The position numbers and the translations under genes are program-made. Shown one piece after another: positions 4,785 through 42,862 of a DNA stretch of 64,000 nucleotides; the first letter of the stretch is position 1, and every line of letters starts with the position of its first letter. The stretch comes from a bacterium (GTDB lineage Bacteria > Bacillota_I > Bacilli_A > RFN20 > CAG-288): the NCBI GenBank assembly GCA_963621825.1, contig CAVFFP010000004.1, forward strand, positions 71,718 to 135,717, in the 5' to 3' direction. The notes under the pieces are model-generated. The model had not been told where the DNA came from. It did no database searches and saw only the letters and a program-made list of their open reading frames with translations.

Positions 4785-6186
4785 GAAGGAGAAAGAACTG
4801 CTCGATCAGGATGATCGTGCCAAATATGAGTTCCGCGATAAGGATATCGCCATCTATCGTACTCCGAAAGGATTGAACGAAGATATCGTCCGCGAAATCT
4901 CACAGATTAAGAATGAACCGGATTTCATGTTGGAGTTCCGTCTGAAATCCTATCGTGAATTCGTCAAACATCATCAGCCCCATTTCGGACCGAATCTCAA
5001 TTGGATCGATTTCCAGGATTACACCTACTATACAAGAGTCTCTGAAAAGATTGCTCAGGACTGGAAAGATGTTCCGGATGAAGTCAAAAACACCTTTGAC
5101 AAATTAGGCATTCCGGAAGCGGAACAGAAGTTCCTTTCCGGTGTCACGACGCAGTATGAGTCGGAGGCTGTCTATAGCAACATGCTTAAGGAAGTTACGG
5201 ATAAGGGGGTTGTCTTCCTCGACACGGATACAGGACTAAAAGAATATCCGGAGCTTTTCAAAAAGTATTTCGGAAAACTTGTTCCTCCTCAGGATAACAA
5301 ATACGCTGCTTTGAACTCCGCAGTCTGGAGCGGTGGCAGTTTTATCTATGTCCCCAAAGGGGTGAAACTGGATAAACCGTTACAGTCCTATTTCCGTATC
5401 AACAATAAGAGAAGTGGACAGTTTGAAAGAACTCTCATCATTGTGGATGATGATGCTGAACTCAATTATGTTGAAGGCTGCACAGCTCCGATGTATTCGG
5501 AGGAGTCTCTCCATGCCGCCATCGTTGAAATCTTTGTTGGAAAGAGAGCGAAGATGCGTTATACCACAATCCAGAACTGGTCGAACTCCATTCTGAATTT
5601 AGTCACACAGCGTGCCATTGTCGATGATGATGGATTGATGGAATGGGTCGATGGAAACATTGGATCCAAGCTCTGCATGAAATATCCATGCTGTGTCTTA
5701 AAAGGCGAAAGAAGCAAAGGCTCTGTCATCTCGGTCGCCGTTGCCGGAGAAGGACAGTTCCAGGATACGGGTGCCAAGATGATTCATTTAGGTAAGGAAT
5801 CCTCTTCTACCATTATCTCCAAGTCTATCGCCAGAAATGGCGGAACGAGCAATTTCCGCGGTCAGATCCACATTGCAAAGACTGCTCTCAATTCCAAAGC
5901 GCATGAAGAGTGCGATACCTTGATTCTTGATGATCACTCCTATTCGGATACGATTCCGAACAATGTCGTTGAGAATGCGTCCTCTTATCTCGAACATGAG
6001 GCAAGCGTATCTCAGATCAATGAAGATCAGCTCTATTATCTCATGAGCAGAGGCTTGAATAAGGCTAGTGCGACTCAGATGATCGTCATGGGATTCTTAG
6101 AACCGTTCAGTAAGGAACTTCCGATGGAATATGCGGTAGAACTGAACCAGCTCATTAAATTTGATATGTCAGGTTCGATAGGATAA
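4777..6186 (+). CDS. sufB: Fe-S cluster assembly protein SufB
   Basis: 469 aa. C-terminal [11 protein letters not shown] motif. Last gene of the suf operon. Confidence 0.85.
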
Positions 6187-15327: not shown

Positions 15328-17016
15328 TTATTTATCTGTAAGAGAAGTTAAGAAACTATCCATGATAGGGGAAGAGGCTTTATTGAAATTCGTGTATGCG
15401 TACTTGCTGTACTGATAGGTAAGACTTCCGTTATAGGTGAATAATCCACCGATATTGGCGATAGAGGAATTTGGATTGCTTTCCGAATAGTCTAAGTGGA
15501 GAAGAATACCTGCACTCTTTAAGTTGCTATCTAACTCAAGATAGGAGGCGAAGAGTTCTTCTGTGATGCTAGCGCCGATAGGAGAGTAGGAAGCGAATTC
15601 ACCTGTGATGAGTGCTTCGCTGGTTTTCACCGATTCAAAGGTGTAGAAATCCGGTTCAAGCATCTCTAAGATCAAGGTGATGTTCTCATAGAACTCATAC
15701 CAATGACTATAGAATTTGCCCTGATCATTTAAGACGCGGCTACCTAATACGACATTGCCGTCTGTGATGGTGAACTCATAGCATCCATCTTCATATTCGG
15801 TCTTTCCATAGATATCGATGTATCCATGGGATACGAGCGGATTCTCGGTATAGGATTCTTTTGTTTCCTCGATATACTCATCGTTATACTGAACTAAGAC
15901 GTAGTTCTCCGTAAAGATTCCGCTTCCGATCGGGATAGTCTTATCCAAACCGGTATAGGTGCCTAAATCACGGACATAATTATGACTCTTGCTGAGTTCA
16001 TAAAGCTTTGTGATGTTGGAGTAAATTTCAGGATAAGCGGGAGTGTTGTTTTCTAAGTAGTTATCGATGACAGGGCATGTGCTCTCTTCGATGCTCTTGA
16101 TAGAGAGTGTGATAGTGGTCGCGATATCGATATCATCCTCTTCCTTTGTTCCAAAGCCGAGAGTTGCAGTAAAAGCGTATTCGTTAACGACAGTCATGTC
16201 TAAGGACACGATGCTCTTCTGCAATTCCGTCATGAAGTCAGTCTGTGTTTCTGACACAAACTGCGTTCCCATCAGGAAGTATAAGGCTTCTAAGTAAGTG
16301 ACAGCAGAAGAGGTAGTCATATCGTAAGTGTTGTCTTCTCTTAAATCCATCTGGTAATAGTTGCTAGAAAGAGTACTAAGACCATAATAGCTGCTAGTCA
16401 AGGCTACTGTCTGATTGCGAAGAATCATTGCATCATCGATTTCATCATTATCATTTGCAGTATAGCTGAACAATTTATCTTCGTAGTAACCGATGCCGCA
16501 GTTCTGAATGAAGTCCTTGTGATTCTCAGAATGATAATAGATTCCGTTAGAATAGACTTCATAGCTATAGGTAGGACTGGACATGCTATCGTAAGCGCCG
16601 CCATCTCCAGTGACAGTGACTTGATAGCTTCCTTTTGAGATACGGCCAACAACAGAGGACAAAGCCCAACTCTCTGTAATAGACATATCGAATTTTGCGG
16701 TATGTCCATTATAAGTGGCAGTGATGGTGACATCGCCTAAAGCGAGGCCTTTTACCATACCTTTTGTAGAGATAGTAGCGATTTTCTTGTTGGATGTCGA
16801 CCATTCCGGAGAGACGACACGTCCACCGATTGTACAGGTGAGAGTCGTATATTCACGGATGCCGATATGATTGATACCGGAGATTTCAAGTTCTTCCTGT
16901 TTCTCTCCGCTTTCCGTCGTTTCACTAGGAGCAGTAGTGCTCTCTGTTGTTTCAGAGCAGCCACTTGCAAGAAGCGCAAGAGATAAGAAGACAGGTAATA
17001 TTCTCTTTTTCATCAT
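15328..17016 (-). CDS. Surface lipoprotein with Big_2-like (bacterial Ig-like) domain
   Basis: Lipobox LLASGCS. The segment ISGINHIGIREYTTLTCTIGGRVVSPEWSTSNKKIATIS...GDVTITATYNGHTAKF resembles a Big_2 domain. Overlaps the upstream gene by 4 nt. Confidence 0.7.
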   Translation of the reverse strand: MMKKRILPVFLSLALLASGCSETTESTTAPSETTESGEKQEELEISGINHIGIREYTTLTCTIGGRVVSPEWSTSNKKIATISTKGMVKGLALGDVTITATYNGHTAKFDMSITESWALSSVVGRISKGSYQVTVTGDGGAYDSMSSPTYSYEVYSNGIYYHSENHKDFIQNCGIGYYEDKLFSYTANDNDEIDDAMILRNQTVALTSSYYGLSTLSSNYYQMDLREDNTYDMTTSSAVTYLEALYFLMGTQFVSETQTDFMTELQKSIVSLDMTVVNEYAFTATLGFGTKEEDDIDIATTITLSIKSIEESTCPVIDNYLENNTPAYPEIYSNITKLYELSKSHNYVRDLGTYTGLDKTIPIGSGIFTENYVLVQYNDEYIEETKESYTENPLVSHGYIDIYGKTEYEDGCYEFTITDGNVVLGSRVLNDQGKFYSHWYEFYENITLILEMLEPDFYTFESVKTSEALITGEFASYSPIGASITEELFASYLELDSNLKSAGILLHLDYSESNPNSSIANIGGLFTYNGSLTYQYSKYAYTNFNKASSPIMDSFLTSLTDK

Positions 17017-18743
17017 GCTAAGGATCCAGCAGAATCGGTTTCATAATCGGAAATCGTCTTGGAGAAGAACTTATTTCCGTTTGTGAAGCCATCACCGACT
17101 TCTGTATTACCGTTTACGAATGTATCGGCTTCAAAATAGAGATTGACAGTGCCAGTGGTAGCGTAGACGGTTCTGAAAGCGACAGAACCGATGCTTGTTA
17201 CAGACTTAGGAAGGAAGACGTAAGTTAACTTCGTGCAGCAGAAGAAGGCACTGTCTTTGATTGTAGTGACGCTATTAGGGATGAGGACTCTTCTCAGCTC
17301 AGAGCAGCTGTTGAAGGAACTGGTTCCAATCTCGAGGAGTGTCTCAGGGAGAGTGATTTCCATCATTGCGGAGCAACCCATGAAGCAAGTATCAGCGATA
17401 GTAGTAATCTTTGTCTTGGATAAGTCGAGAGTGGATAAAGAGGTGCATCCATTGAAGGCGGAGACACCGATCTTGGTGATGTTTTCACCTAAATCGATTG
17501 AGGTAAGAGCACGGCAGTTTGCGAATGTCTTATCACCGATCTCGGTGATTGCAGAAGGAATGTTGATGGACTTTAAGCTAGTGCAGGCATTAAAGGCTTC
17601 ACTTCCGAGTTCTGTGATAGACTCCGGAAGAGATAAGGTGGTAAGACCGACATCTCCTGCGAAGGCTCTTGAACCAACGCGAGTGATAGAGTTGTTCAAA
17701 GTGACGCTAGTGAGCTTGGAACAGTTCATGAAGCAGTCATCCGGAATTTCAGTATAAGTGCCTTTGATGGTGACATTGACAAGAGCGGAATCGTAATAGA
17801 AGAGACCTTTAGAAAGTTTTGTAAGGCTTTCCGGGAGGGTGACTTTCAAGATGGAAGTATTTTCGCTTAAAGCTAAATCTTCTACTTCTGTAAGTTGAGT
17901 CGCTTTATCAAGGGAAAGGCTTGTCAAAGATCTGACAGCAGCAATCGAACGATAGCCTAAATGCTTCAGATTGCTATCCTTGCTGATGGAGATTGCAGTG
18001 AGCACCGTATTTCCGTAGAAGGCGTAATCGGCAATGTACTCGACTTCGCTAGGAAGATCGAAAGAGGTGAAGTTCAATCCGGCAGGATAGACATAGAGAG
18101 TCTTTTTGTCGTTGCTATAAAGAACGTTGCTCTCCGTAAGGAAGTGTTCGCTTCCGCTAGCGACTTTGATCTTCTTGATGTTGAAATCGAGGTTGAAGAC
18201 ACCAGATCCTAATTTCTTCAAAGATTTCGGAAGGGTGATTGTAGTAAGGCTTGGGCAGTATTTGAAGGCGGAATCATCGATTTCCTCAAGTCCTTCCGGA
18301 AGGGTCAGCTCGTCGAGCTTACTGTCTGAGGAGAGACCTAAGAAGGCTTCTTTTCCGATCTTTCTCAAAGAGCGAGGAAGAGTGAGAGAGTCGATGGTCG
18401 AATAACGGAATGCGGCTTCTCCAATCTCTTTGACTGGTAATCCCTGGTAGATATCCGGAATGACAATGTCGTATTCGACTGAGAGGTAGTCTGTGACGAT
18501 ATAGTAAGATTCTGTCTCATCCAGAGTCATGACAATACCGCCGGTCATGTCCTCTTCCGGAATGATAGATTCTGATGTGGTATCTTTGCCAGTGGTATCG
18601 GTGTTAGTTGTATCGCTGACCTGATTATTACTAGTGGTAGGATTTGTGCTCTCTTTGTTTCCGCATGCGATTAAAGATAAGGAAAGGAGAGATAGTGCGA
18701 CAATTCCAAATTTCTTGTTTTTCATAATAATTGATCCTTTCAT
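17013..18743 (-). CDS. Surface lipoprotein with BspA-type leucine-rich repeats
   Basis: Lipobox LSLIACGN. Repeated units of the form LPESITELGSEAFNACTSLKSINIPSAITEIGDKTFANCRALTSIDL (LRR_5/BspA type). An alternative start at 18724 (MKNKKFG) has an AAAGGA RBS. Confidence 0.75.
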   Translation of the reverse strand: MKGSIIMKNKKFGIVALSLLSLSLIACGNKESTNPTTSNNQVSDTTNTDTTGKDTTSESIIPEEDMTGGIVMTLDETESYYIVTDYLSVEYDIVIPDIYQGLPVKEIGEAAFRYSTIDSLTLPRSLRKIGKEAFLGLSSDSKLDELTLPEGLEEIDDSAFKYCPSLTTITLPKSLKKLGSGVFNLDFNIKKIKVASGSEHFLTESNVLYSNDKKTLYVYPAGLNFTSFDLPSEVEYIADYAFYGNTVLTAISISKDSNLKHLGYRSIAAVRSLTSLSLDKATQLTEVEDLALSENTSILKVTLPESLTKLSKGLFYYDSALVNVTIKGTYTEIPDDCFMNCSKLTSVTLNNSITRVGSRAFAGDVGLTTLSLPESITELGSEAFNACTSLKSINIPSAITEIGDKTFANCRALTSIDLGENITKIGVSAFNGCTSLSTLDLSKTKITTIADTCFMGCSAMMEITLPETLLEIGTSSFNSCSELRRVLIPNSVTTIKDSAFFCCTKLTYVFLPKSVTSIGSVAFRTVYATTGTVNLYFEADTFVNGNTEVGDGFTNGNKFFSKTISDYETDSAGSLA

Positions 18744-20249
18744 TTATTCATGTGGAACGCAGAAGGAAGGGATGGTAGTTGTGTTGTAATCTTTGATTGT
18801 AGTTGTATAGGTACGTGTTGCGTAGACGGTCGTTGTGGAATCATCAAGATAGTAATTTCCAGTCAAAGAGTTTTCGAAATTCTTAAATGTTCCGTCCTTG
18901 TTCAGATTGATTGTGAAGTCACCGCTTGTCGGCTGATTGATGTATTCCTCAAAGGTGTTCATGGAAAGCATGGCAAGAGTTTTGTAAGTAGTATATGGAG
19001 TAAAGGAGTTGTCCAAGTTGTCTTTGAAGCATTCGACAGCAAGACTTCCGATCTTCGGCGCACAGTCGAGGAAGCTATCTCCGATTTCAGAGTCAGAGGA
19101 GATACCCCAATATTTCTTCAGTTCATCTTTTCTTACGAAAGCGTGAGTGTCATCCGCCATATAACGGTAGATGTAGGTCTTTCCGCCTTCAAACTGATAG
19201 GCGAGATTGTACTTGTATTCCGTATATTCGTCATCATCTGTTTCTGGAGCGATGAGACCGGTGAACTCATAGGTGTTATAGATGATCTGGTTTTCGAAAT
19301 CGACTAAGAATTCATAGGAGGTTCCACTAAGCTGAGAAACATCATAGCTGACATCGATATGCATGGTGTAGTTCTTCATATCGGTATTGTCATAGCGATA
19401 CGGTTTTAAAGCCTCAGAGAGAGTATCATGACCGTCTGTATGCTCTAAAGGCACGATTTCACGAGGCTCTGTCATTCCAAGGTCAGAAACATCGAGTTCG
19501 AACATGACACCTTCATAATAGTAGGTTCCATCATCTTCGCTGATTTCAAGCTCAAGGATGAAACGGAACTGATCGATTTCATCTCCGTTGAAATGGAGAG
19601 CGAACTCGCTGACAGTCGGAGTGTAATCATAATCTCCGTAATAAGGGTGACTTGGTGTATATCCAGGAAGTCCAGTAGTCTGATATCCAGTGAGATAGTA
19701 GACAATCTGGGAGGCGAGAGTGCTGTATTTTGTGGAAATGAGATACCAGTTCGGTTTTTCACGGATGGCGCTGAGGCATTCGACCTTCAGTTCACGGAAA
19801 GGTGTATCCATGACTTCCGCATATTTCTGAGAGGTCTTAGTCTCTACGATCTCATTGTCGAGAGGATTGAGCGTTCTTGAATAAAGGTAGCCGTCATCAC
19901 CGGCGAAGAAATTTTCTTCTGTTAAGGTTTCACCTGTGATGTAATCTGCCTCTGAATAATAGTAAGCAGTGGAATCGATCTCTGCGAGAACATCATACTC
20001 ATTTTGAGTATCATTGGTTCCGTCATAGGTCTGATGGCTGAGCTTTCCGGTCAAGGTGAAGCTTTGAGTGAGATCTTCTAATGCATAGGTGAGCTGCTCG
20101 TAAACATTCGGTTTTCTGCTGCTGGATGCGGATTCCGATTGTTTGTCGGTGGTTTCCTGAGAATCGATAGCAGAGTCACTGTTTGTGGTACCTTGACATG
20201 CACATAGTGCAAGCATTGTAAGTATCAACGGGATTTTGTTTTTCTTCAT
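18744..20249 (-). CDS. Lipoprotein (501 aa), function unknown; first gene of a three-gene lipoprotein operon
   Basis: Signal peptide MKKNKIPLILTMLALCACQG. AAAGGAGG RBS upstream. Its stop abuts the start of the next gene. Confidence 0.7.
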   Translation of the reverse strand: MKKNKIPLILTMLALCACQGTTNSDSAIDSQETTDKQSESASSSRKPNVYEQLTYALEDLTQSFTLTGKLSHQTYDGTNDTQNEYDVLAEIDSTAYYYSEADYITGETLTEENFFAGDDGYLYSRTLNPLDNEIVETKTSQKYAEVMDTPFRELKVECLSAIREKPNWYLISTKYSTLASQIVYYLTGYQTTGLPGYTPSHPYYGDYDYTPTVSEFALHFNGDEIDQFRFILELEISEDDGTYYYEGVMFELDVSDLGMTEPREIVPLEHTDGHDTLSEALKPYRYDNTDMKNYTMHIDVSYDVSQLSGTSYEFLVDFENQIIYNTYEFTGLIAPETDDDEYTEYKYNLAYQFEGGKTYIYRYMADDTHAFVRKDELKKYWGISSDSEIGDSFLDCAPKIGSLAVECFKDNLDNSFTPYTTYKTLAMLSMNTFEEYINQPTSGDFTINLNKDGTFKNFENSLTGNYYLDDSTTTVYATRTYTTTIKDYNTTTIPSFCVPHE

Positions 20250-21616: not shown

Positions 21617-21668
21617 AAGAAAGCAAGAAAGAAAAAGCATATGCCACAGATTATGACATATGCTTTTA
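21617..21668 (-). terminator. Rho-independent terminator ending the CooC/Hgd-like operon
   Basis: Stem aagcatatg / catatgctt with a 13-nt loop, followed on the minus strand by a T-rich run. Confidence 0.5.
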
Positions 21669-21669
21669 T

Positions 21670-22377
21670 TCATTGATTTGCTTTATGAATCGCTCTCATA
21701 CCTTCGATTTCATCGCAGATATCGCGGAAGGAACAGGTTCTGCAGTCCATCTTCAGCTTCTTCATGATGTGATCTAAGGTGACTGTGATTCTTTCGCTCT
21801 CCTTGGAGAGTTCAAGAAGCTTGTTGTGCGGGAAATTAGGAGCAGTGATGAAGACCTGACGGACATAGCGGACATGAGCTTCCTTCTTGAACTGCTTGAG
21901 GAAGGACATTCCGATATCCTTGAAAGAGAGACCATCCTTAATCGCATCATCGGATACACAGGCACCTTCTCTTAGAAGATTGGTGTTCACCTTCAGCATA
22001 TAGCCTTCTGGATTGACTTTATAGCGTCTGTATTCAATGTTGCGGAAGATACGGTAATACTCCTGATCCTTAACATCATTCTCATTGTCGATTTCAAAGA
22101 GATAGATGTGGGAGAAAGGAACATCTCCTTTTAAGTCTTTCAGGTCATTGCCGATCAAGGCGATGGAATCCTTGCCTAAAGCGTTAGTCTGACTTGTGTA
22201 TCCGTAGAAATAGGATGACGGAAGAGAAGAATCACCTAAATGAATCCTGCAGTCCTCAGAAAAGAGGAATACTTTGCTCTCGCTTTCCTTCCAAGAAGAT
22301 TCAAGAGGAAGTTCTTTCGTTTCGAAAGGAGAAGTAAGAGAGAGGACATCATCGATGCATTTCTGATAGAGTTCCAT
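21670..22377 (-). CDS. Hypothetical 235-aa protein, last gene of the CooC/Hgd-like operon
   Basis: I recognise no family. C-terminal CRTCSFRDIC. Its start lies 2 nt after the stop of the upstream small ORF. Confidence 0.5.
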   Translation of the reverse strand: MELYQKCIDDVLSLTSPFETKELPLESSWKESESKVFLFSEDCRIHLGDSSLPSSYFYGYTSQTNALGKDSIALIGNDLKDLKGDVPFSHIYLFEIDNENDVKDQEYYRIFRNIEYRRYKVNPEGYMLKVNTNLLREGACVSDDAIKDGLSFKDIGMSFLKQFKKEAHVRYVRQVFITAPNFPHNKLLELSKESERITVTLDHIMKKLKMDCRTCSFRDICDEIEGMRAIHKANQ

Positions 22378-22378
22378 A

Positions 22379-22558
22379 TTACTCTAAATGGCGGTTTCTC
22401 TTTCTCTTATCGTATTTCTTATTGATCCACTTTTGAATCGGAACGAGCATTTTGCTGTCGAGGTTGAAGAAATAGACGACGAAGAGAAGAAGGAAGACTA
22501 AAAGGATGAAGCCGAGAATGGAGCCTAATACAATCAGTAAAATTACCCACCAAGCCAT
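22379..22558 (-). CDS. Putative small membrane protein (59 aa), not in the ORF track (below length cutoff)
   Basis: Translation MAWWVILLIVLGSILGFILLVFLLLFVVYFFNLDSKMLVPIQKWINKKYDKREKPPFRV has one strongly hydrophobic TM helix plus a basic tail. It exactly fills the gap between the activase stop and the start of the next gene (TAA-T-ATG). Confidence 0.35.
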   Translation of the reverse strand: MAWWVILLIVLGSILGFILLVFLLLFVVYFFNLDSKMLVPIQKWINKKYDKRKRNRHLE

Positions 22559-22559: not shown

Positions 22560-23357
22560 TTAGTTTGCCATGCCTTTCTGTCTAGCGTATTCGGCAGCGC
22601 CTAAAGCACCCATGAGCTGAGGATCGATAGGAAGATCTTTCACCTTGATGTGAAGGACCTGTTCGATTGCCTTCTTCAAACCGAGGTTCTTAGCGCAGCC
22701 ACCAGTCAAAGCGATGGAGTCGGTAGCACCGGCTTTCTTAGCCATGACGAAGCAGCGCTTTGCAACGGAAGCCATGATGCCAGCGGCAATCTCTTCCATC
22801 GGTTTGCCTTCTCCGACAAGGGAGATGACTTCCGATTCACAGAAGACGGTGCACTGTGAGGTGATCGGAATGACGTTCTTTGCGGTCAAAGACAACGAAC
22901 AGAAGTCATCGAGATCCATCTCGAAGCTTCTGGCCATAGCCTCGAAGAAACGACCAGTACCGGCAGAGCATTTGTCGTTCATGGCAAAGTTCATGACGGT
23001 GCCATCCTTAGGATCGATGGCGATGCCTTTGACGTCCTGACCGCCGATATCGATGATGCTGGTGATTGTAGGATCAGAGACATGGACACCCATAGCGTGG
23101 CAGGAGATTTCGGAGATGTTTTCATCAGCGAAAGGAACCTTGTTTCTTCCGTATCCGGTACCGATGAGGTAGGTGAGGTCTTCAATCTTGTTGATGCCAT
23201 CGACCTGAGCGATGGTTTCTTCAAGAGCAATTCTTGCACTTTCGACAGGATTGATTTTGGACTTTAAGGTCTTGTTGGCGACCATTTTTCCATTTTCATC
23301 TAAGATAACGCATTTTGTATAGGTTGAACCTGCGTCGCATCCACCAAAATATTTCAT
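22560..23357 (-). CDS. HgdC/HadI-type ATP-dependent [4Fe-4S] activase of 2-hydroxyacyl-CoA dehydratase (BadF/BadG/BcrA/BcrD ATPase family)
   Basis: 265 aa. Near-colinear similarity to HgdC: DAGSTYTKCVIL, CHAMG, IIDIGGQDVK, NDKCSAGTGRF, LTGGCAKN. AAAGGAG RBS upstream. Confidence 0.9.
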   Translation of the reverse strand: MKYFGGCDAGSTYTKCVILDENGKMVANKTLKSKINPVESARIALEETIAQVDGINKIEDLTYLIGTGYGRNKVPFADENISEISCHAMGVHVSDPTITSIIDIGGQDVKGIAIDPKDGTVMNFAMNDKCSAGTGRFFEAMARSFEMDLDDFCSLSLTAKNVIPITSQCTVFCESEVISLVGEGKPMEEIAAGIMASVAKRCFVMAKKAGATDSIALTGGCAKNLGLKKAIEQVLHIKVKDLPIDPQLMGALGAAEYARQKGMAN

Positions 23358-23371: not shown

Positions 23372-24919
23372 TTACCAACGATTGACATCGTCCATATCGA
23401 CTAAGGATTCATCGAGAGGTGTTTCACGAAGAACCGTCTTCATGTAACGGTTGACATCTTCTCTCATATCTTTTCTCGTGGCCTTTGTCGGATTCATCAA
23501 GGCGTGATAGACCCAAACGATATGGATGCCTCTCTTTCTGCCTTCCTCTTCCAACAAGCCGTGATAGCCAGCCATGGATTTGCATCCGATGTGTTCATAC
23601 ATGATGACCATGTCGGCTTTGTATTCTTCACAATACTGCCAGAGCTGTTCGACACCGACTTCATAACCGCCATTGGAGTGGTTACGCATAATCATATTCA
23701 TATTGTATTCGCCTAAGTCGAGAAGTGCCTGGTCATGGTCTTCGTAGTTGATCGGCTTGGTGAGAGTGAAGGAGAGCATGTCGCAAAGACAAACGATACC
23801 CCAGCAGTTGGAAAGCCACTGGTTGAAGGCGGTATAGTACTGAGCGTGAACACCCCAGACAAGAGCGCGGTGACGGATTTCCTTGATCGGGAGATGCTTT
23901 TCCTTGTAGGCTTTCTTTGCAATGTCCGTGATCTGCTGATCAAGCTTTAAGAAGGACGGATCTCTTCCAGAGATGACCATGTATTCGGCATCGCGGTAGA
24001 GCATGATGTTGTTGTTGACGACCTGCGGGTATTCGGTCTTGTTCATTTCCATCCACTCTTCGAAGAGTTTGTTCTGGGCATTGTATGTCTTCATGTTCTT
24101 AGCGAAGGCATCCCAATCCCATTTTTCACCGGTATGCTTTTCAATGAATTTGATGGCTTCGACAATCTGATCTCTGGAATAGGCTAAGACGGATTTCTGC
24201 TGATGACGCATCGGAGCGGCCATGGTGAAGGAGGGAAGATCATCGTGTCTGTCTTCAATCTGGTTACCCATCAAAGAGCCGTCGCAAGTTGTGTTGCAGT
24301 GAACGGCACAGACACCGCAGATCGGATAATCCTCATCGATGGCACAGCCTAATTCTGCACAAGGCATCGGGCAGACATCGGAAGGAATCTGGAACTCTTC
24401 AGCGACTTCGATGTAGTGAAGGACACCGTCCTGAGCAATGGTGCTTCCGGTGTAGATAGCAGGAACTTCCTTTGAGAGGAACTTCAGGTTCGGGAAGCCG
24501 GTCGCAATGACCATCATTCCGTTTTCATCCATGATGACGAGCTTCTTATTCAGTTCATCATATTTTCCCTTTTTGTTTCCGATTCTCTTATCACATTTGA
24601 ATAAGGTGTCCATTGTCTGAGTTAGATGTTCGACAATGGAGTCGTATTGGATGTGTCCAATTCTAAGCTGCGGACCTCTTACACCTTCTAAGTGTCTATC
24701 GATATAGTCGAAGGCGGCAAGATAGTTGCCGAACCAACGGTAAGTGAACATCGCCTTGAGAGTCGTTGGCTTCATGATGAATTTTCCCATGACCATGAGG
24801 TTCTTCAGCCAACGGGAGAAATCATACATTGTATCTTTGAAACCACGCCATTCACGATGGGTCGCTGTCTTCTTGCCAGGCTTATTGGTGCTGCCTAGTC
24901 CTTTTTTCTTCTTATCCAT
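23372..24919 (-). CDS. 2-hydroxyacyl-CoA dehydratase / benzoyl-CoA reductase family subunit (HgdA-like, 515 aa) with a Cys-dense motif
   Basis: HgdA/HadB-like length and composition. Motif CPMPCAELGCAIDEDYPICGVCAVHCNTTCDG has 7 Cys in 31 residues. AAGGAGG RBS upstream. Confidence 0.75.
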   Translation of the reverse strand: MDKKKKGLGSTNKPGKKTATHREWRGFKDTMYDFSRWLKNLMVMGKFIMKPTTLKAMFTYRWFGNYLAAFDYIDRHLEGVRGPQLRIGHIQYDSIVEHLTQTMDTLFKCDKRIGNKKGKYDELNKKLVIMDENGMMVIATGFPNLKFLSKEVPAIYTGSTIAQDGVLHYIEVAEEFQIPSDVCPMPCAELGCAIDEDYPICGVCAVHCNTTCDGSLMGNQIEDRHDDLPSFTMAAPMRHQQKSVLAYSRDQIVEAIKFIEKHTGEKWDWDAFAKNMKTYNAQNKLFEEWMEMNKTEYPQVVNNNIMLYRDAEYMVISGRDPSFLKLDQQITDIAKKAYKEKHLPIKEIRHRALVWGVHAQYYTAFNQWLSNCWGIVCLCDMLSFTLTKPINYEDHDQALLDLGEYNMNMIMRNHSNGGYEVGVEQLWQYCEEYKADMVIMYEHIGCKSMAGYHGLLEEEGRKRGIHIVWVYHALMNPTKATRKDMREDVNRYMKTVLRETPLDESLVDMDDVNRW

Positions 24920-24921: not shown

Positions 24922-26118
24922 TTACTTGGCCTCCTTGTCTTTCTGAATCTTCTTGATTTCAAGCGCTTCGATGAAGGCCTGGATTCTTGTTCTCAACTGA
25001 CCGGACTGACCGACGTTGTATGGGCGGTCGATGGAAAGAGTCTGATAACCATATTCATTCTGCATGACAGCGTTCATGAAGGCTCTTCCATATCCCCAAT
25101 AATCACAGAATTTGATCTGTTCGATGATAATGCCGTCGACATGATATTCTTTGCCAATCTTATCGACATAGGCGTGTCTTTCGTTGACTTTCTCCGTTGT
25201 GAGGAAACGAGGGCACTGTCCGCTTTCCATATAATAGCGGCAGACCTGAGTAAGAGCATCTTCCTCATCGTTGAGGATGATTTCCTGTCTTCCCGGAAGG
25301 GAGCCAAAGCAATATCTGTCAGCGACGACGACAAGTCCGCAGTCCTCTGCCAATTTGATCAGCTGCGGATCATCGATTTCACTGCCGACCATAGCGACAC
25401 GGCAACGATAGGTACCCTTCTTGTCCGGGACACGGTTTCTGACCTCTTCCAAAGTCTCCGTGAGTTTCTCGATGAGTTTATCCTTCGGGCAGCAGTATGT
25501 CGCTAAGCAAAGGACAGCAAACTCATAACCGGTGATTCTAGGGCATTCTTCTTTTCTGAAGTCGCCGATTTCGGTGATGAGCTTGGAAATCTTATTTTGC
25601 TCTTCGACAGCTTTTCTGATGGCTGCATCACTGATATCGATATTGTAGTGTTCGTTAAGAGGCTTTAAGACGTGTTCCTGCATCTGAAGGATATAGTGCT
25701 TCAATGTGACGTCATCTGATTTCATCGGAACATCGACATAGGAAGCGAAGAATCCTTCCTTCGGGCAGCAATCGAGATGCTCGATGTTTTCGACACATCG
25801 GTTCATCATTGCACATGCTTCCGGTGCGATGATGCCATCAAGGAAACGGAATCCGCCTTCTAGTGCTCTCTCTAAGATGGCACGACAGGCTTCACAGAAA
25901 ATAGGGGAAAGATAATAGTTTCCCATTTCCGTAGAACCTGTTCTTGGAGCACGAAGTCTTACAGAGAAGATGCCAGGGAGGTTAAGAAGAGGTTCCGGAA
26001 TCTGATAGCAGACATGTCCGATTGCCTTTCTTCCTTCGTTCTGTGCTTCTTCGATGAGATCGTTGTTGGAATTCTCTAACAGCTTTTCAAAATAGTATAG
26101 GTGCTTCAGGTCTCTCAT
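24922..26118 (-). CDS. 2-hydroxyacyl-CoA dehydratase / benzoyl-CoA reductase family subunit (HgdB-like)
   Basis: About 398 aa from the ATG at 26118 (AAAGGAGAG RBS). The ORF-track start at 26133 is GTG. Multiple conserved Cys, including CxxC. Confidence 0.7.
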   Translation of the reverse strand: MRDLKHLYYFEKLLENSNNDLIEEAQNEGRKAIGHVCYQIPEPLLNLPGIFSVRLRAPRTGSTEMGNYYLSPIFCEACRAILERALEGGFRFLDGIIAPEACAMMNRCVENIEHLDCCPKEGFFASYVDVPMKSDDVTLKHYILQMQEHVLKPLNEHYNIDISDAAIRKAVEEQNKISKLITEIGDFRKEECPRITGYEFAVLCLATYCCPKDKLIEKLTETLEEVRNRVPDKKGTYRCRVAMVGSEIDDPQLIKLAEDCGLVVVADRYCFGSLPGRQEIILNDEEDALTQVCRYYMESGQCPRFLTTEKVNERHAYVDKIGKEYHVDGIIIEQIKFCDYWGYGRAFMNAVMQNEYGYQTLSIDRPYNVGQSGQLRTRIQAFIEALEIKKIQKDKEAK

Positions 26119-26129
26119 ATGCTCTCCTT

Positions 26130-26891
26130 TCACTCTTGAAGTATATGAATTTTAGTTAATGCTTCTTTGGTACCCTTGACGATGCTGCTGTCCTTAGGAA
26201 GATAGAAGACATTCTCACCTTCCATATCATAACGGGCAAGTTCATCATCAGAAGGAATCTTGGACAATACCTTCATATTGTCAAAGTGATAATCCTCTTC
26301 CATAGCCTGTGAGGAGAGGCGGTTTAAGATGACACCAATCTCTTCATACATGACAAGGTCATCGGCAACAGTCTTGATGGTCTTGATGACCTGCTGACCC
26401 TTTTTGGACTGATCACTGATCAAAAGGAGATGGGTAACCTTTTCCATGACTCTTCTGTTAATCTGCTCAATGCCGGCTTCTCCGTCGATGACGACAAAAT
26501 CATAATGGGAAGAGATAGAAGAGATGACATCCTTGAGATAAGTGTTGATTTTGCAGTAGCATCCGCTTGCCTCCGGTCTGCCGATGGCAATAAAGGTAAA
26601 ACCGTTGGAATGAACCATAGCCTCTTCGATGGAATAGCTTGCGTTTCCTAAAACTTCAACAACGGCATTTTTGCCCTGTTCGCTTGCAGCGATGGCCTCT
26701 TTTCTTACATCATCGATTGTCTTATCGTATTCGATTCCAAGTGCGGTGGATAAACCGACTGCGGGATCTGCGTCAATAGCCAAAATCTTCTTGTCCGGAT
26801 AATTGTCGACCAAAAGTCTGACAATGCACGCGGCGATGGAAGTCTTTCCGACTCCACCTTTTCCAGCAACTGCAATAATAGATGTTTTCAT
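26130..26891 (-). CDS. CooC-type MinD/ParA-superfamily ATPase (metallocentre insertase-like)
   Basis: Deviant Walker A AVAGKGGVGKTS at the N-terminus of the 254-aa form starting at 26891 (AAAGGA RBS). CxC motif GCYC, as in CooC/AcsF Ni-insertases. The ORF-track start at 26981 is probably an upstream extension. Confidence 0.65.
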   Translation of the reverse strand: MKTSIIAVAGKGGVGKTSIAACIVRLLVDNYPDKKILAIDADPAVGLSTALGIEYDKTIDDVRKEAIAASEQGKNAVVEVLGNASYSIEEAMVHSNGFTFIAIGRPEASGCYCKINTYLKDVISSISSHYDFVVIDGEAGIEQINRRVMEKVTHLLLISDQSKKGQQVIKTIKTVADDLVMYEEIGVILNRLSSQAMEEDYHFDNMKVLSKIPSDDELARYDMEGENVFYLPKDSSIVKGTKEALTKIHILQE

Positions 26892-27029
26892 CGCGAATAC
26901 AGTCCTTTCAATTTGAGTATAAGAATATGATACAAAAAGGGCTTTCAATTTGAAAGAGGTTTCACGAAAAATTTTGCGCATTTGTGCAATAAAATGTTCA
27001 AAATTTTATATTTGAATCTTTTTATTTCC

Positions 27030-27060
27030 ATGAAAAAAGGAGCCAAATGGGCTCCTTTGA
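27030..27060 (-). terminator. Rho-independent terminator after the dipeptidase gene
   Basis: 9-bp stem aaaggagcc / ggctccttt with a 5-nt loop. On the minus strand a T6 run follows. Confidence 0.6.
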
Positions 27061-28535: not shown

Positions 28536-28738
28536 AATTGTCTCCTTAGTAAATGATCGGTATCCATTTTAAATGTTTTCTCGTTTTATATCTATGTATT
28601 TGATAAATCAAATAAAAGTAGAACAGCAAAAGCGCTTTTTCATAAAAGTTTTTTAATGAAATGAGAGAAAACACTTGAAGTGATGTTGAAAATATTATAT
28701 ACAATACAAGTTTTAAGGTTCAATTAAGGAGAATGTAT

Positions 28739-30871
28739 ATGAAAAACAAGATAAAGATTATGTTGTTGCCGCTTCTTGCTCTGATGAGTCTCACTGTCGT
28801 ATCCTGCGGAGGAAACAGTGACTCCAGCAAGCCTTCCGATTCCGAAAGTCAGACCACTGCAGATAAGGAATCTGAATCCAAGAAGGAAGAGACAAAATAC
28901 CAGGTCAGCTTCAATAAGTCCGACAAGGTCGAACTTTCTGTCACTGGATTAGAGAGCGATAAAGCTCTTCCGGGAAGTGAAGTCACCTTCACTGTCACAA
29001 GTCAGGAGGAAGAAATCCTTTCTGTCGATTCTTCCGTTGCTCATTTGGATTATGAGAATGGTGTCTATTATTTCACCATGCCGAATCATGATGTCACAAT
29101 CGATGTCGTTTCTGAGGCCTATGGAGATCCTTCTATTCTTGATGTTAAGGATGTCGATACTACCTCTCTTCCGAACAACGTTTCTTCTTTTACCGCATAT
29201 TTAGAAAAGTCGATGGCTGTGGAAGGCACATATTTCTCTTCCGCTCATGTTGTAAACAACAACTTCAATGGAACTGCTGCCTGGTACGATTACAACGTCA
29301 AAGCCGCTAAGAATGATATGGTTCTCATCTCTGGACATAAGAAGAACTACCTCAGTGATACCATGAGTACGTTCTACTCCAAGGAAATCGGAAGAGAAAA
29401 TGATATCTATTACACTATCACATCTACAACATCTTTAGGTTCCTCTGCTAATACAATTGCCAATGATTATGTATTCAAAAACATCATTTCCGATGATGCT
29501 GCAGCCGTTGGCGTTAATCAGATTAAGGAAAGTGATGCAAAAGCCGAATACTCATCCTATCAGGGCGCCGCTGTTATTTATAACTTTTTCTTCAGCGAGA
29601 ATGCTTCTTTTAAGCTGAATGAATGGACACATGAGTTACAATCCTATACTTATTATCTAAAGGATATGGAAAAGACCGTATCCGATGATAAAAAGTCAAT
29701 CCGTTTTGATTTGACTGCACTTTTTTGTAATTGGAACGGAACTTCAATTTTTAATATATCGTTGGAGTTTGACGGCGACAATTTCATGCAGAATGCTAGC
29801 ATTAGCAAGACAGACTACGACTCCGCCGATTGTGATTCCACGACAAAGATGCCTCTAGATGGCAAAACTGGAAAACTGATGGCAACCTACAATCTTGAAA
29901 TGACTCGTGGTTATAAGTCCACGATGGAAAAAACTGATATCTCTTCCTTTGCAATGGATAGTTATGATGTTTCTATCTCCTACTCCATTAACGGGGAAGA
30001 AAAAGAAACAGATAGCAATGATGTTGTTGTTGATAATGGTTCTGAACTCAAGTTTGCTTTTAACTCCAATGATGATAAGGCAACCTTCGTTGAACCTACA
30101 TTGAAGGAGGTTGAGGAAGAAGATGATTACGTCGATTTGAAAACACTCACCGTTCTCAAAGAGGGTGAATTCACTTTAGTTTTCGACAATGGATTCGGTG
30201 TAGAGAAGAAAGTTAAAATCAAATCCGTGAAGCCGAAAGCGGCCTCCATCTCTGTCAGTGCACCTTCTAGTGTCTATCTGAATGAAACAAAAAACATGAC
30301 AGTCTCTATTCTCCCTGAGAAAGCAAATCAGGATGTCACCTTCACAAAGAAGGATACTTCTGTTGGTGACGCAACCATCACTAAGAATGATGATGGCACC
30401 TACGCGATTCAGGGTGTAAAACTCGGCGAAGTTTCCTATACCGTCACCAGCGTTGGAAATGATGAGATTACAGAAGAGTTCACATTCAATGTCATTGAAA
30501 AACCGGATGCCGAAACTTTTAAAAACAATGTTTTCACAAAGACTTTCTACGGTGAATCTACAAGCTACAAGGCCGTTGCTAATTTCAATGAGGAAGGCTC
30601 TGGCGAATTCAAGACTGCTTCTAATGGTTATTATTCTTACTATGAAGCCGTAAGAACGTTCCATTGGACATTCGACGAAGCTTCTTTGACCTTCACTATC
30701 ACGGATGCTACTGGAAGCTATTATGATGGAAGAGGCTTCTTTACCTTCTCTGCTGTCACAGCAGAAGAAGCTATCGGTTCCTTCGTTGAATATAACTATT
30801 ATGGCAATAAGACAGAGTTCACTCTCAATATGACTTCTCAGGACAGAAAAGATCTTTCTGAATTCAACTGA
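28739..30871 (+). CDS. Surface lipoprotein with C-terminal Big_2-like domain
   Basis: Lipobox LTVVSCGGN. AAGGAGA RBS favours the ATG at 28739 over 28733. Ig-like segment near residues 480-570. Confidence 0.7.
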   Translation: MKNKIKIMLLPLLALMSLTVVSCGGNSDSSKPSDSESQTTADKESESKKEETKYQVSFNKSDKVELSVTGLESDKALPGSEVTFTVTSQEEEILSVDSSVAHLDYENGVYYFTMPNHDVTIDVVSEAYGDPSILDVKDVDTTSLPNNVSSFTAYLEKSMAVEGTYFSSAHVVNNNFNGTAAWYDYNVKAAKNDMVLISGHKKNYLSDTMSTFYSKEIGRENDIYYTITSTTSLGSSANTIANDYVFKNIISDDAAAVGVNQIKESDAKAEYSSYQGAAVIYNFFFSENASFKLNEWTHELQSYTYYLKDMEKTVSDDKKSIRFDLTALFCNWNGTSIFNISLEFDGDNFMQNASISKTDYDSADCDSTTKMPLDGKTGKLMATYNLEMTRGYKSTMEKTDISSFAMDSYDVSISYSINGEEKETDSNDVVVDNGSELKFAFNSNDDKATFVEPTLKEVEEEDDYVDLKTLTVLKEGEFTLVFDNGFGVEKKVKIKSVKPKAASISVSAPSSVYLNETKNMTVSILPEKANQDVTFTKKDTSVGDATITKNDDGTYAIQGVKLGEVSYTVTSVGNDEITEEFTFNVIEKPDAETFKNNVFTKTFYGESTSYKAVANFNEEGSGEFKTASNGYYSYYEAVRTFHWTFDEASLTFTITDATGSYYDGRGFFTFSAVTAEEAIGSFVEYNYYGNKTEFTLNMTSQDRKDLSEFN

Positions 30872-32757
30872 TGAAAAAGAATTGTATTGGATTATCGTTT
30901 CTTGTTCTGTCACTAGTCGCCTGTCAAGGTGGAGGAGATTCCTCCGCCTTGAAACCGACGGAATCCGCAAATGCGGAGAAAACGGAGACAACAGGCGAAA
31001 CAACTTCTCAACAAAAAGAGAAACTTGAATTTGAACCAGCTAAGACAATCAGTAATCTTTTCGACTATCTGAATACAACAGGAAGAGAAATAGAGAATAC
31101 GGATGGTATCATCTTTGACAGAAACTATTATTCCTATGAGGTCGGATATTATACGTTCAATACGATAGAGAAGAGTGAGAATGGTGAGTCTTTTGATAAT
31201 GATTCCTATTTCGTTTATGGAACGGAGTCTAAGACAACCACTTATGACTATAAGGATGATGTCGATAAGGTAGAAGACTACTATATGTGCCTGAATCAGT
31301 TGGATGGAAATGACTACTACTCCATTGTGGATTATGATGATGGCAAAGATAGAGATACGGCAAACAAAGAGACAGTTTTGGTGACAAATAGGGATTCCTA
31401 TTTGGCAAAGACGAATCTTAATGCTTTGGATTCCCTTTATACTTTCTATAAATCGAAAGTCTCCAAGAACATCATCAAAGGCGTCGATGATATCACACCG
31501 AATATCACGGATAAAAATACGGTTGAGTATCATATCGCTCAGGGATGGGAAGAGACAATCGGCGATTACAAGTATAAGTATGCCGCTATCATCGATCTTT
31601 CTTTGGATTACAAGGGAAGACTGACCAAGTATAGTTATAACTTCAAAGAATATCAGCCCTCTACGGAAGAAGGCGGCAATGATTTTCTTCTCAGTGAAAT
31701 CAAGGATGAAGTCGAAATCCAGTTCGGAAATAAGATCACATACGATTATTTCGAAAAGGTCCAAAATGGTGAAAAAGCAATTGATCCTCTTGATTACTTC
31801 ATGACGGATTACACTCCGGTATTGTTGTCCTGGGATGGTGTCGGAACAGAGAAGACTAAAGAGGATGCTCTTAGTTTCCCTATCAACATGTATGTTGAGG
31901 CTGAGGCCACAGAGATTGTTCCTGAAAAGGCTTTGGATACGAAGTTGACTGTCACTGATAGCACGGATAAAAGTGTTATCTCTGTCACATCTTCTGGTAT
32001 TGTAAAAGCAGTCGGATTAGGTGAAACCACCCTTACCATTCAATCGGAATCCGGTGTCACTACGAAGATGAATGTCAAGGTTGTCTCTCCTGCTTTACAG
32101 GAGATTGTCGCTAAAACTTATTCTACGTATCATTTCAAAGGGGATACCGATACTCTCTATATCTATAAGACTCCTTCGAATTCCTTAGAGGAGATTGAGG
32201 TCGTCTCATTGACAGAGGATGTCATTGAAGTTGTCAAAGACAAAGATGGTGATTATGCTTTGCATAACATCGGAGTCGGAGAAGGAACCGTCGAAGTAAG
32301 AAGCAAGACGAATCCTACAGTGAAGTGCACGGTCTCTTATTCTGTCGTAGAGAAGAAGACAGTCGAAGAAGTCAAAGCCAATGTCGTCGGAACATGGGAT
32401 GGAGACCTTCCGAATACTAGTGGTACAGGGATGGTAAAGGATGCCGCTACAGTTATCTATAATGATGATGGCACCGGTAGCTTCACTTTGAATAGTTCCG
32501 ATACGGGTTACACCTTTGAAGTCGGAAAAGCCTATCCATTTACCTATACCTTCTTAGAAAACGGAAGATATGTGGATAGACCTGTCTCCCTTACGATGTC
32601 TACGATTACTTTGGATCATGGACAGGTTGTCTGGACGTATTCCGCAAATGCTGCTGACTTCTATTACACGGGCGAGAACGCAAATATCATCTTCGCAACG
32701 GGAAATTCAGAAGAATACGGCGCAATGGTGCAGTTATCTGCAAGACGTGTCGCTTAA
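30871..32757 (+). CDS. Surface lipoprotein with two Big_2-like domains
   Basis: Lipobox LSLVACQGG. Its start overlaps the previous stop by 1 nt (TGATG). Repeated VTxxDxxVISVTSSGxVKAVGLGETTLT-like segments. Confidence 0.7.
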   Translation: MKKNCIGLSFLVLSLVACQGGGDSSALKPTESANAEKTETTGETTSQQKEKLEFEPAKTISNLFDYLNTTGREIENTDGIIFDRNYYSYEVGYYTFNTIEKSENGESFDNDSYFVYGTESKTTTYDYKDDVDKVEDYYMCLNQLDGNDYYSIVDYDDGKDRDTANKETVLVTNRDSYLAKTNLNALDSLYTFYKSKVSKNIIKGVDDITPNITDKNTVEYHIAQGWEETIGDYKYKYAAIIDLSLDYKGRLTKYSYNFKEYQPSTEEGGNDFLLSEIKDEVEIQFGNKITYDYFEKVQNGEKAIDPLDYFMTDYTPVLLSWDGVGTEKTKEDALSFPINMYVEAEATEIVPEKALDTKLTVTDSTDKSVISVTSSGIVKAVGLGETTLTIQSESGVTTKMNVKVVSPALQEIVAKTYSTYHFKGDTDTLYIYKTPSNSLEEIEVVSLTEDVIEVVKDKDGDYALHNIGVGEGTVEVRSKTNPTVKCTVSYSVVEKKTVEEVKANVVGTWDGDLPNTSGTGMVKDAATVIYNDDGTGSFTLNSSDTGYTFEVGKAYPFTYTFLENGRYVDRPVSLTMSTITLDHGQVVWTYSANAADFYYTGENANIIFATGNSEEYGAMVQLSARRVA

Positions 32758-42103: not shown

Positions 42104-42862
42104 TCAGTATATCAACGTAATGTTGTTTTCTTTGCAAAATTCGATATATTTGTCGTCTGGTTTCTTGTCTGTGATCAGGTAATCGACTTTAGAAAGCGGA
42201 CATGTCAAAAAGAATCCTTTCTTTTCAAATTTTCCGGATTCGCATAAAAGAATGGTACAGTCGCTGTTCTCCATCATTTTCACTTTGATTTCTGCCTGCT
42301 CCTGAGTAGTTTCCATGACACCATAATCCAAATTCACACCAGTACAGGACATGATTGCGTAATTGCAGTGTATTCTAGACAGTGTGGATATGACCATGTT
42401 TCCGACGACGGATACGCTCCTTGAATTCAGATAGCCAGGCAAAAGGAGAACCTGAGAACTGGTTTCCTGTGATAATAGTAATGCGCCTTTTACACCATTG
42501 GTGACGACGTTTAGGTTGTGGCAGCTCTTGAAGAAAGGAACCAAAAATGTGACAGTACTGGATGAATCTAAGAAAATGGAGGAATTGTCTTTGATTAATT
42601 CGGAGCATAACTCACACATATATCTCTTTTCTTTGATGTTTGTGTTTTCACGGAAGAGAATGGAAGATTCCTCATTCGGTGATTCCTGAAGGATGACGCC
42701 TCCGAATGTTCTCTGGACTAGGCCTCTTTTTTCCATATGTGTGAGATCTCTTCGAATCGTTGCACTGGAAACGTAGAGAAGCTTGGTTAGCTTTTCAACA
42801 GAAATGGATTTTTTCTCCTTGAGAATTTCGAGAATCTTTTCTTGTCTCTCTAAATCGTACAT
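42104..42862 (-). CDS. DeoR-family transcriptional regulator (RhaR-like, sugar catabolism)
   Basis: 252 aa. N-terminal HTH (ISVEKLTKLLYVSSATIRRDL) and a DeoR C-terminal sugar-binding domain. Divergent from rhaA. Confidence 0.8.
   Translation of the reverse strand: MYDLERQEKILEILKEKKSISVEKLTKLLYVSSATIRRDLTHMEKRGLVQRTFGGVILQESPNEESSILFRENTNIKEKRYMCELCSELIKDNSSIFLDSSSTVTFLVPFFKSCHNLNVVTNGVKGALLLSQETSSQVLLLPGYLNSRSVSVVGNMVISTLSRIHCNYAIMSCTGVNLDYGVMETTQEQAEIKVKMMENSDCTILLCESGKFEKKGFFLTCPLSKVDYLITDKKPDDKYIEFCKENNITLIY

Follow-up and report, generated by a model that had tools for sequence, protein, structure and literature searches.

A seven-cysteine segment in an HGD-D subunit and the six-gene operon that surrounds it

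The DNA considered here is a stretch of 64,000 nucleotides from a bacterium of the CAG-288 lineage (contig CAVFFP010000004.1 of GenBank assembly GCA_963621825.1, positions 71,718 to 135,717), referred to below as the window and numbered from its first letter. On its minus strand, at 23372..24919, an open reading frame (ORF) codes for a protein of 515 residues, hereafter the alpha subunit, in which a first-pass annotation had noticed an unusually dense run of cysteines and had taken it, together with a neighboring CooC-like ATPase, as a hint of a more complex or additional metallocluster. The run itself is borne out: residues 183-214 (24278-24373, minus strand) translate exactly as CPMPCAELGCAIDEDYPICGVCAVHCNTTCDG, and cysteines 183, 187, 192, 201, 204, 208, and 212 place seven within 30 residues of a protein that has 13 in total. 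Because only 17 of 100,000 residue shuffles of the 515-residue protein match this density (at least seven cysteines in any 31 consecutive residues), the clustering is not a matter of chance.

The gene belongs to a block of six minus-strand genes packed with overlaps or with gaps of at most 14 nucleotides, in the order CooC-like ATPase, beta subunit, alpha subunit, activase, a 59-residue membrane peptide, and a 235-residue protein resembling part of acetyl-CoA synthase (ACS). The cysteine stretch itself appears to be ordinary, and the unusual part appears to be the operon around it, which seems to be undescribed: no description of this cassette was found in full-text literature searches, and the SAO/double-cubane preprint covers NF040772 proteins, not the alpha family discussed here.

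The cysteine segment of the alpha subunit

The alpha subunit is an alpha-type (catalytic-type) member of the HGD-D superfamily, scoring 135.2 bits against PF06050 (cut-off 28.4), and its AlphaFold2 (AF2) model, built with 52 homologues, is of good quality (predicted local distance difference test, pLDDT, 86; predicted template modeling score, pTM, 0.88). The top Foldseek matches of this model are BzdO (E 1.9e-13), HadB, and MbdO (to 2e-11), followed by the double-cubane cluster protein DCCP, with beta-type chains lower, and the first-pass label "HgdA-like" is therefore acceptable as a superfamily name. Because the scores lie far below every curated equivalog cut-off, the protein is placed by its sequence outside every characterized family: 30.2 bits are obtained against 750 for the HadB equivalog NF052455, 49.2 against 350 for the DCCP model NF040772 (to which the beta subunit scores 125.9), and 16 against 449 for the Bzd equivalog TIGR03191 (BzdO). 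On TIGR03190, the other Bzd equivalog, the score is 85 against 454.

Profile alignments to solved structures bring three cysteines into register with known cluster ligands. C183 aligns with Cys95 of BzdO and with the DCCP ligand in NLCPL, C212 aligns with Cys128 of BzdO (within one residue, in a CC pair) and with the identical TTCDG loop of DCCP, and C446 aligns with the third ligand, Cys380 of BzdO; the numbering was checked against PMC11971306 for BzdO and, at N111, against PMC9351452 for DCCP. C183, C212, and C446 are thus most likely the canonical ligands of a [4Fe-4S] cluster. Nothing is inserted between the first two, as 28 residues separate them compared with 29 in DCCP, and the constant length of the segment in all 84 loci that were fetched likewise argues against an insert. 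In the alpha model, residues 184-194 form a helix and residues 204-208 a strand, with C212 in the next loop, and the loop after C212 is modeled with low confidence. The segment thus has the form of an ordinary helix-loop-strand in the model.

The alpha subunit holds three of the six double-cubane ligand cysteines, all six of which are present in its 403-residue partner. No cysteine is found in alpha at the three distal double-cubane positions: C275 and C307 of beta stand opposite S383 and approximately M411, and the first double-cubane ligand position falls in an invariant DENMM loop. The alpha-beta profile alignment (permissive local hhalign) is usable for the C-terminal domain and unreliable for the N-terminal domain. 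In addition, C212-D213-G214-S215 is invariant in alpha, and the catalytic histidine that follows the second ligand by three residues in BzdO (His131) is missing.

Two relatives illustrate that the number of cysteines in this segment is not diagnostic of cluster content. HadB binds one [4Fe-4S] cluster via three cysteines (PMC7317905), and yet its homologous segment of 34 residues contains five cysteines (DLC...GGC...LLCC-NNI-C), the same C-x3-C included; DCCP retains a conserved seventh, non-ligand cysteine beside its cluster (PMC7317905), and a cysteine of DCCP that lies outside its seven-cysteine motif aligns, as a non-ligand, with C201. Cysteine density in this segment of HGD-D proteins is accordingly a poor predictor of cluster content. 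The possibility that the cassette is a common insert of ordinary single-cluster relatives, which had been raised as a point of refutation, is partly borne out: HadB does carry five cysteines there with one cluster, but there is no insert, and the form with seven cysteines is specific to one clade.

Clustered at 90% identity, the relatives of alpha at E <=1e-5 number over 1,000 proteins, nearly all of approximately 512 residues, and conservation was counted in 117 full-length homologues, in the 84 fetched loci, and in 22 more distant alpha-like representatives. Cysteine is present in all 117 homologues at positions 183, 204, 212, 372, and 446, in 116 at position 208, and in 115 at position 430, whereas position 187 is Ala in 107, position 192 is Val or Leu in 98, and position 201 is Ile or Val in 99; C183, C204, C208, and C212 are the only four of the seven segment cysteines conserved across the family. 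The seven-cysteine form is limited to the window's own clade (87-97% identity), in which 23 of 27 loci have seven cysteines and the other four have six, with C187 and C201 fixed in all 27. All other clades have four or five cysteines in the segment and an occasional extra one at varying positions, and separate clades have repeatedly gained cysteines at differing positions (192, 201, 203).

Among the 22 distant representatives, only C183, C212, and C446 are universal (one truncated sequence excepted). C204 is present in about half of them, as is a cysteine at position 372, and position 430 varies freely; in distant and sister alpha clades, position 208 is occupied by Ser, Thr, Asn, Ala, or Gly. 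On these alignments the extra conserved cysteines (204, 208, 372, 430) do not behave as one site, and the alternation of Ser, Thr, and Cys at position 208 would be expected of a second-shell residue and not of a ligand. Separately, alpha carries an N-terminal helical extension of approximately 120 residues, in which residue 100 (24620-24622, minus strand) is Cys in 106 of the 117 family members and Thr in the window protein.

The beta subunit, the activase, and the accessory genes

The 403-residue beta subunit (24922..26133, minus strand) is a beta-type HGD-D protein (PF06050, 266 bits) and a probable carrier of an [8Fe-9S] double cubane. Its best solved relative is BzdN (8s02_B, E 2e-23), and its C42, C80, C107, C275, C307, and C343 align one-to-one with BzdN Cys36/73/100/263/293/327, which are the [8Fe-9S] ligands of that protein (PMC11971306); neither the 73 homologues compared nor five sister clades show any change at these six positions. 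Because beta keeps all six ligands and alpha is without the three distal ones, the complex cluster probably sits in beta. The earlier suggestion of a more complex metallocluster therefore very probably holds for the enzyme, but the dense cysteine stretch is neither evidence for such a cluster nor its probable site. The beta subunit also has two further cysteines, C83 and C298, that are invariant in the family; in most sister clades, C83 is replaced by Ser, Thr, or Ala, and C298 gives way to Val, Ala, or Leu.

The ATP-dependent activase of 265 residues (22560..23357, minus strand) is of the HgdC/DCCP-R type (TIGR00241, 216.9 bits against a cut-off of 125.4; PF01869, 177 bits). Its C130 and C169 are invariant in homologues, and their spacing resembles that of the two cluster-bridging cysteines of DCCP-R, C115 and C152 (PMC9351452). 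The window has one activase gene, and so does each locus that was examined.

The first gene of the operon codes for a CooC-like P-loop ATPase of 253 residues (26130..26891, minus strand; PF01656 CbiA), and this part of the first-pass annotation is confirmed, as CooC1 is the best solved relative (3kje, E 1.5e-15), with GCYC of the ATPase aligned with the CxC motif of CooC1. Both C141-Y-C143 and GKGGVGKT are invariant in 65 homologues. The ORF as listed extends to 26981, 30 codons (26892-26981) too early; the ATG at 26891 is the likely start, because it is preceded by a ribosome-binding site, GAAAGGA, and the homologues are of approximately 253 residues.

The small membrane peptide of 59 residues (22379..22558, minus strand) is a single-pass peptide with a conserved Y.F.LD.KL motif and no family match in Pfam. 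In 61 of 84 loci, and also in sister clades, a gene for a homologous peptide of 47-76 residues is found at this position. The peptide accompanies the alpha-beta pair in every clade examined, even in those without CooC-like or ACS-like genes.

The last gene codes for a truncated ACS-like protein of 235 residues (21670..22377, minus strand), in which an ACS middle domain is followed by a C-terminal C212-x2-C215-x5-C221-x9-H231. The match of the window protein to PF03598 CdhC is weak (E 0.037), and that of a homologue is clearer (L002, E 1.5e-7); the family profile matches ACS residues 297-481 (E 9e-6), the match to TIGR00316 covers positions 16-180, and all 21 significant fold matches of the AF2 model (pLDDT 89.5) are to ACS, with E values of 8e-10 to 1e-5. 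C212, C215, and C221 are invariant, and H231 is conserved in at least 90% of the family. By extrapolation of position only, this CxxCx5Cx9H element lies within a few residues of the start of the ACS A-cluster cysteines, the series C506-x2-C509-x8-C518-x9-C528. When the C-terminal cysteine segment was compared alone with solved structures, chance matches only and no direct alignment to ACS were obtained, and the equivalence to the A-cluster cysteines therefore stays positional. The Cys-Gly-Cys motif is absent from every ACS-like homologue, and the window protein ends four residues past H231; in ACS, Cys595-Gly596-Cys597 binds both nickels (PMC10299331). The 235-residue protein therefore cannot work as an ACS.

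A promoter-like region containing promoter-like hexamers lies upstream of the operon at 26927..27030 (minus strand; from a consensus scan and sequence reading, a pattern match only), and a terminator of the upstream dipeptidase gene, at 27036-27058, precedes it. Directly after the last gene, a terminator-like hairpin with a 16-bp stem and a T run is found at 21633..21667 (minus strand; likewise a pattern match only).

Elsewhere in the window, an Fe-S assembly cluster of the SUF type is located at 1589-6186 (plus strand), comprising a SufC-like ABC ATPase, a SufS-type class-V aminotransferase, and SufB/D, and is followed by MnmG. An ORF of 950 residues at 12363-15215 (plus strand) has no Pfam match at E <=1e-4. 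Five large tandem genes flank the operon (15328-20249, minus strand, and 28733-32757, plus strand), and their products are rich in Ser, Thr, and Asp and have lipoprotein-signal-like N-termini (a hydrophobic stretch and a Cys). An L-rhamnose utilization cluster at 42104-46559 comprises a DeoR regulator, the isomerase RhaA, a class II aldolase, and an FGGY kinase.

Distribution and neighborhood of the cassette

Relatives of alpha occur in at least 531 GTDB species-representative genomes, and among the matches listed the carriers are mostly Lachnospiraceae, Oscillospiraceae, Christensenellales, and Clostridium, with Anaerovoracaceae, Erysipelotrichales, uncultured Bacilli, and Treponemataceae as further main carriers. 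The cassette itself is met with in hundreds of genomes of anaerobes. The window matches metagenome-assembled genomes (MAGs) from the gut labeled uncultured Bacilli or Candidatus Enteromonas at 92-97% identity. Six loci that are 88-97% identical to the window (L006, L008, L011, L014, L019, L031) are labeled Alistipes, Prevotellaceae, Bacteroidales, Butyrivibrio, Phascolarctobacterium, and Paludibacteraceae. Since uncultured Bacilli and Candidatus Enteromonas account for the remaining close matches, mistakes of binning or labeling in one MAG series are the probable source of these names. Cultured carriers of the cassette include Clostridium gasigenes DSM 12272, Emergencia timonensis SN18, Faecalicatena faecalis AGMB00832, and [Lactobacillus] rogosae CLA-AA-H255, which makes direct testing feasible.

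Linkage was counted in 54 loci with at least 5 kb of flank on each side. All five partner genes accompany alpha in 39 of these, and a detectable peptide is all that is missing in five more; in nine Lachnospiraceae loci only beta is nearby (seven of the nine also have the peptide). With one exception, a locus has either all three of the CooC-like, activase, and ACS-like genes or none of them, and in Christensenella-type loci the gene order is shuffled while the set is kept together. Several sister-clade loci lie on contigs of 2-6 kb that are too short to show a neighborhood. Where it can be seen, the same six-gene cassette, including a CooC-like gene with GCYC and an ACS-like gene with CxxCx5Cx9H, surrounds the alpha genes of sister clades that bear S208 and A372 (L090) or T208 (L093), and a distant clade with C204 (L091) has activase, peptide, beta, and alpha but neither a CooC-like nor an ACS-like gene. 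The CooC/ACS-like module thus does not track the extra cysteines, being present without C208 and absent with C204, and the link that had been drawn between the cysteine stretch and the CooC-like ATPase is not upheld.

In 28 loci, the immediate neighbor of the cassette is an Fe-S flavoprotein of approximately 900 residues, often encoded in the same orientation, with HypA in 19 loci and HypB in four (loci L032-L064 and others, for example L053:2893-5601 and L036:3837-4178). Fer4, Fer4_20, and Pyr_redox_2 domains are recognized in this flavoprotein, whose N-terminus is unassigned, and the typical order is GntR<, HypB where present, reductase, HypA, CooC, beta, alpha, activase, peptide, and ACS-like. 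In size, architecture, and HypA/HypB linkage the reductase resembles IsrA, a likeness of description and not of alignment; IsrA represents a putative nickel-dependent isoprene reductase family (PMC10134865). The direct adjacency in 28 loci, with HypA/HypB, suggests that the cassette pairs functionally with this putative nickel-dependent ene-reductase family. A relationship between the N-terminal region of the IsrA-like protein and the ACS-like protein was also considered and is ruled out (hhalign probability 0.2%). Sister cassettes adjoin enoate reductases of the old yellow enzyme (OYE) type (Oxidored_FMN and Pyr_redox_2; L090:1809-4649 and L091:1-3353), and an acetoacetate-decarboxylase-family gene is present in one of these two cassettes, an aldehyde:ferredoxin oxidoreductase in the other.

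A scan of the approximately 30 largest ORFs of the window revealed no IsrA-like reductase, HypA/HypB, or OYE-type neighbor, and no CoA-transferase or nickel transporter. Genes for a CoA-transferase and a 2-hydroxyacid dehydrogenase were found neither in the operon, nor among those largest ORFs, nor among the recurrent neighbors of the 84 loci. No gene for carbon monoxide dehydrogenase (CODH) or a full ACS was found in the operon or the window, where the only ACS-related gene is that of the 235-residue fragment.

Proposed function and comparison with known systems

The homologies, the conservation of cysteines, and the linkage of genes are observed, and from them we infer the cluster types, the electron path, the role of nickel, and the chemistry. 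The explanation that we favor, and hold to be probable, is that electrons pass from the activase to a double cubane in beta and on to a single [4Fe-4S] cluster held by C183, C212, and C446 of alpha, with the other cysteines of the stretch being second-shell, buried, or neutral. Alpha would be the catalytic-type (BzdO/HadB-like) subunit of an ATP-primed, low-potential Fe-S radical enzyme, and its cluster would leave one iron open for substrate or water. Reduced ferredoxin or flavodoxin would supply the [4Fe-4S] cluster of the activase, which, driven by ATP, would pass electrons to the beta double cubane as both store and relay, from there to the alpha [4Fe-4S], and finally to the substrate at the open iron. 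The core would thereby have the architecture of BzdNO, in which one subunit carries a double cubane and its partner a cubane with an open iron.

An extra cluster ligated by the other five cysteines of the stretch is improbable. C208, which ends the strand leading to C212, would belong to the second shell, and C204 would be a buried strand residue; C187, C192, and C201 are clade-specific and possibly neutral replacements of Ala, Val, and Ile. The CooC-like ATPase, the ACS-like protein, and the membrane peptide are fixed parts of the operon, and the ATPase most likely serves a Ni/Fe-S site of the ACS-like protein and not the cysteine stretch. As for the chemistry, the large flavoenzymes of the ene-reductase type that often adjoin the cassette make a reduction or dehydration probable, one that is coupled to an ene-reductase step and feeds or follows the reduction of a C=C bond.

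Several considerations weigh against this explanation. The placing of C204, C372, and C430 away from the cluster edge reflects only the topology of the model, and a second small metal site in alpha is possible, since C204 and C208, and likewise C372 and C430, are invariant or nearly so within the family. The extra three cysteines are kept across 27 species-level genomes of one clade, which could indicate selection and not drift. In addition, the lack of the Cys-Gly-Cys nickel motif in the ACS-like protein weakens the assignment of the CooC client.

A more far-reaching possibility, which taken as a whole is unlikely, is that the cassette represents a nickel-dependent branch of the benzoyl-CoA reductase (BCR)/2-hydroxyacyl-CoA dehydratase (HAD) radical enzymes. 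The CooC-like ATPase would then load nickel onto a Cys-bridged [4Fe-4S] of the ACS-like subunit, giving an A-cluster-like site with the proximal nickel only, possibly completed by residues of alpha and beta. Activase electrons would, via the double cubane, drive this center or the alpha [4Fe-4S] to a very low potential, and the resulting organometallic or radical chemistry might act on a substrate that the neighboring IsrA-like or OYE-like ene-reductases also use.

That the CooC-like ATPase is unrelated to nickel is rather improbable. It might instead build or fuse the beta double cubane, in the way that its relative NifH acts on the P-cluster of nitrogenase, or tether the complex to the membrane together with the small peptide, the ACS-like protein then being a scaffold or a CoA-binding adaptor. 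CooC does belong to the MinD/NifH class of P-loop ATPases (PMC7317905), and the missing Cys-Gly-Cys motif and the lack of a nickel transporter among the scanned ORFs are consistent with such a role, as is the possibility that the neighboring HypA/HypB serve the IsrA-like enzyme instead of the cassette (PMC10134865). However, BzdNO has been made in Escherichia coli with no dedicated maturase mentioned (PMC11971306), DCCP has likewise been produced in E. coli (PMC7317905), a sister clade keeps the six-cysteine beta with no CooC nearby, and the invariant CxC of the ATPase matches the metal-binding motif of CooC1.

A still smaller chance attaches to the notion that the extra cysteines are functional non-ligands, forming, close to the open-iron cluster, a thiol relay or a protective shell that is reinforced in the window's clade and serves, for example, in sulfide or persulfide delivery, cluster repair, or redox buffering. 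The repeated appearance of cysteines at 192, 201, and 203 in separate clades, the fixation of C187 and C201 in 27 of 27 loci, and the seventh, non-ligand cysteine beside the DCCP cluster (PMC7317905) would fit this notion; the residues replaced (Ala, Val, and Ile) are small or hydrophobic, however, which fits neutral substitution in strict anaerobes, and among the extra positions of the segment only 204 and 208 are conserved across clades.

Finally, that the stretch ligates an extra or enlarged cluster in alpha (a second cubane, a double cubane, or a Ni-containing cluster) matured by the CooC-like ATPase is very unlikely. In its favor, C204 and C208 are conserved in the family beside two canonical ligands, C208 lies four residues ahead of C212 where its strand ends toward the cluster, the low model confidence of the next loop is often seen in cofactor-binding loops, and the CooC-like gene is tightly linked. 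Against it, three of the seven cysteines are not conserved, the segment has regular secondary structure and no insert, the three distal double-cubane ligand positions are missing in alpha, HadB has five cysteines there and one cluster, cassettes with S208 or T208 still have the CooC-like and ACS-like genes, one clade bearing C204 has no CooC, and the extra cysteines do not covary as a set.

Under the favored explanation, with its single alpha cluster and beta double cubane, the operon offers a double-cubane candidate that is widespread and gut-associated and whose set of partners is fixed. According to reviews, DCCP and BzdN are the only solved [8Fe-9S] examples, and the physiological role of double-cubane proteins is largely unknown. 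If the proposed client of the ATPase is correct, CooC-type chaperones and the ACS fold would extend beyond carbon monoxide and acetyl-CoA metabolism. In addition, the frequent adjacency to IsrA-like reductases associated with HypA/HypB, which are themselves unexplained, links the cassette to an open problem.

The closest comparison is with the class I benzoyl-CoA reductase BzdNO of the Bzd system (8s02; PMC11971306), which is likewise a heterodimer of two HGD-D paralogues. Its six-cysteine double-cubane subunit aligns with beta, and its three-cysteine subunit, which binds a [4Fe-4S] cluster with an open iron, aligns with alpha through C183, C212, and C446, BzdO being the top fold match. There are also significant differences. 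The window sequences are far below the Bzd equivalog cut-offs, C212-D-G-S stands where BzdO has its catalytic histidine, two ATPases, BzdP and BzdQ, are replaced by one activase gene, and alpha has its N-terminal helical extension. Moreover, the operon adds the CooC-like, ACS-like, and membrane-peptide genes, and its hosts are gut fermenters, not degraders of aromatic compounds.

HadBC/HadI (3o3m) shares with the present system the fold class, a catalytic subunit with one [4Fe-4S] cluster on three cysteines, and a single homodimeric activase, and the HadB version of the segment is also rich in cysteine, with C-x3-C before the ligand. However, HadC has three ligand cysteines and a [4Fe-5S] cluster, whereas beta has six such cysteines, the CoA-transferase and 2-hydroxyacid dehydrogenase genes were not found here, and the HadB model is matched only far below its cut-off. 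In these respects the pair departs from the 2-hydroxyacyl-CoA dehydratases proper (HgdAB, HadBC, FldBC). With DCCP/DCCP-R (6eno, 7yyl) the similarities are the identical TTCDG ligand loop of DCCP and alpha, the nearly equal spacing of the N-domain ligands, the six ligands kept in beta, and a single activase of the DCCP-R type; DCCP differs in being a homodimer of one gene with a seven-cysteine motif, whereas here two paralogues have diverged and alpha is without three ligands, and both subunits score well below the NF040772 cut-off. PlsA/PlsR, the plasmalogen synthase, which also belongs to the BCR/HAD family, was considered as a further relative and is not supported by any family model or architecture match.

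Among the accessory proteins, the ATPase shares with CooC1/AcsF the GKGGVGKT Walker A sequence and the invariant CxC, with CooC1 as its best solved relative, but there is no CODH or full ACS client here, the only related candidate being the 235-residue ACS fragment. That fragment matches the middle domain of AcsB/CdhC by both profile and fold and differs from it in being without the N-terminal domain, nearly all of the A-cluster domain, and Cys595-Gly596-Cys597. Overall, the cassette combines a BzdNO-like core with an unprecedented accessory set.

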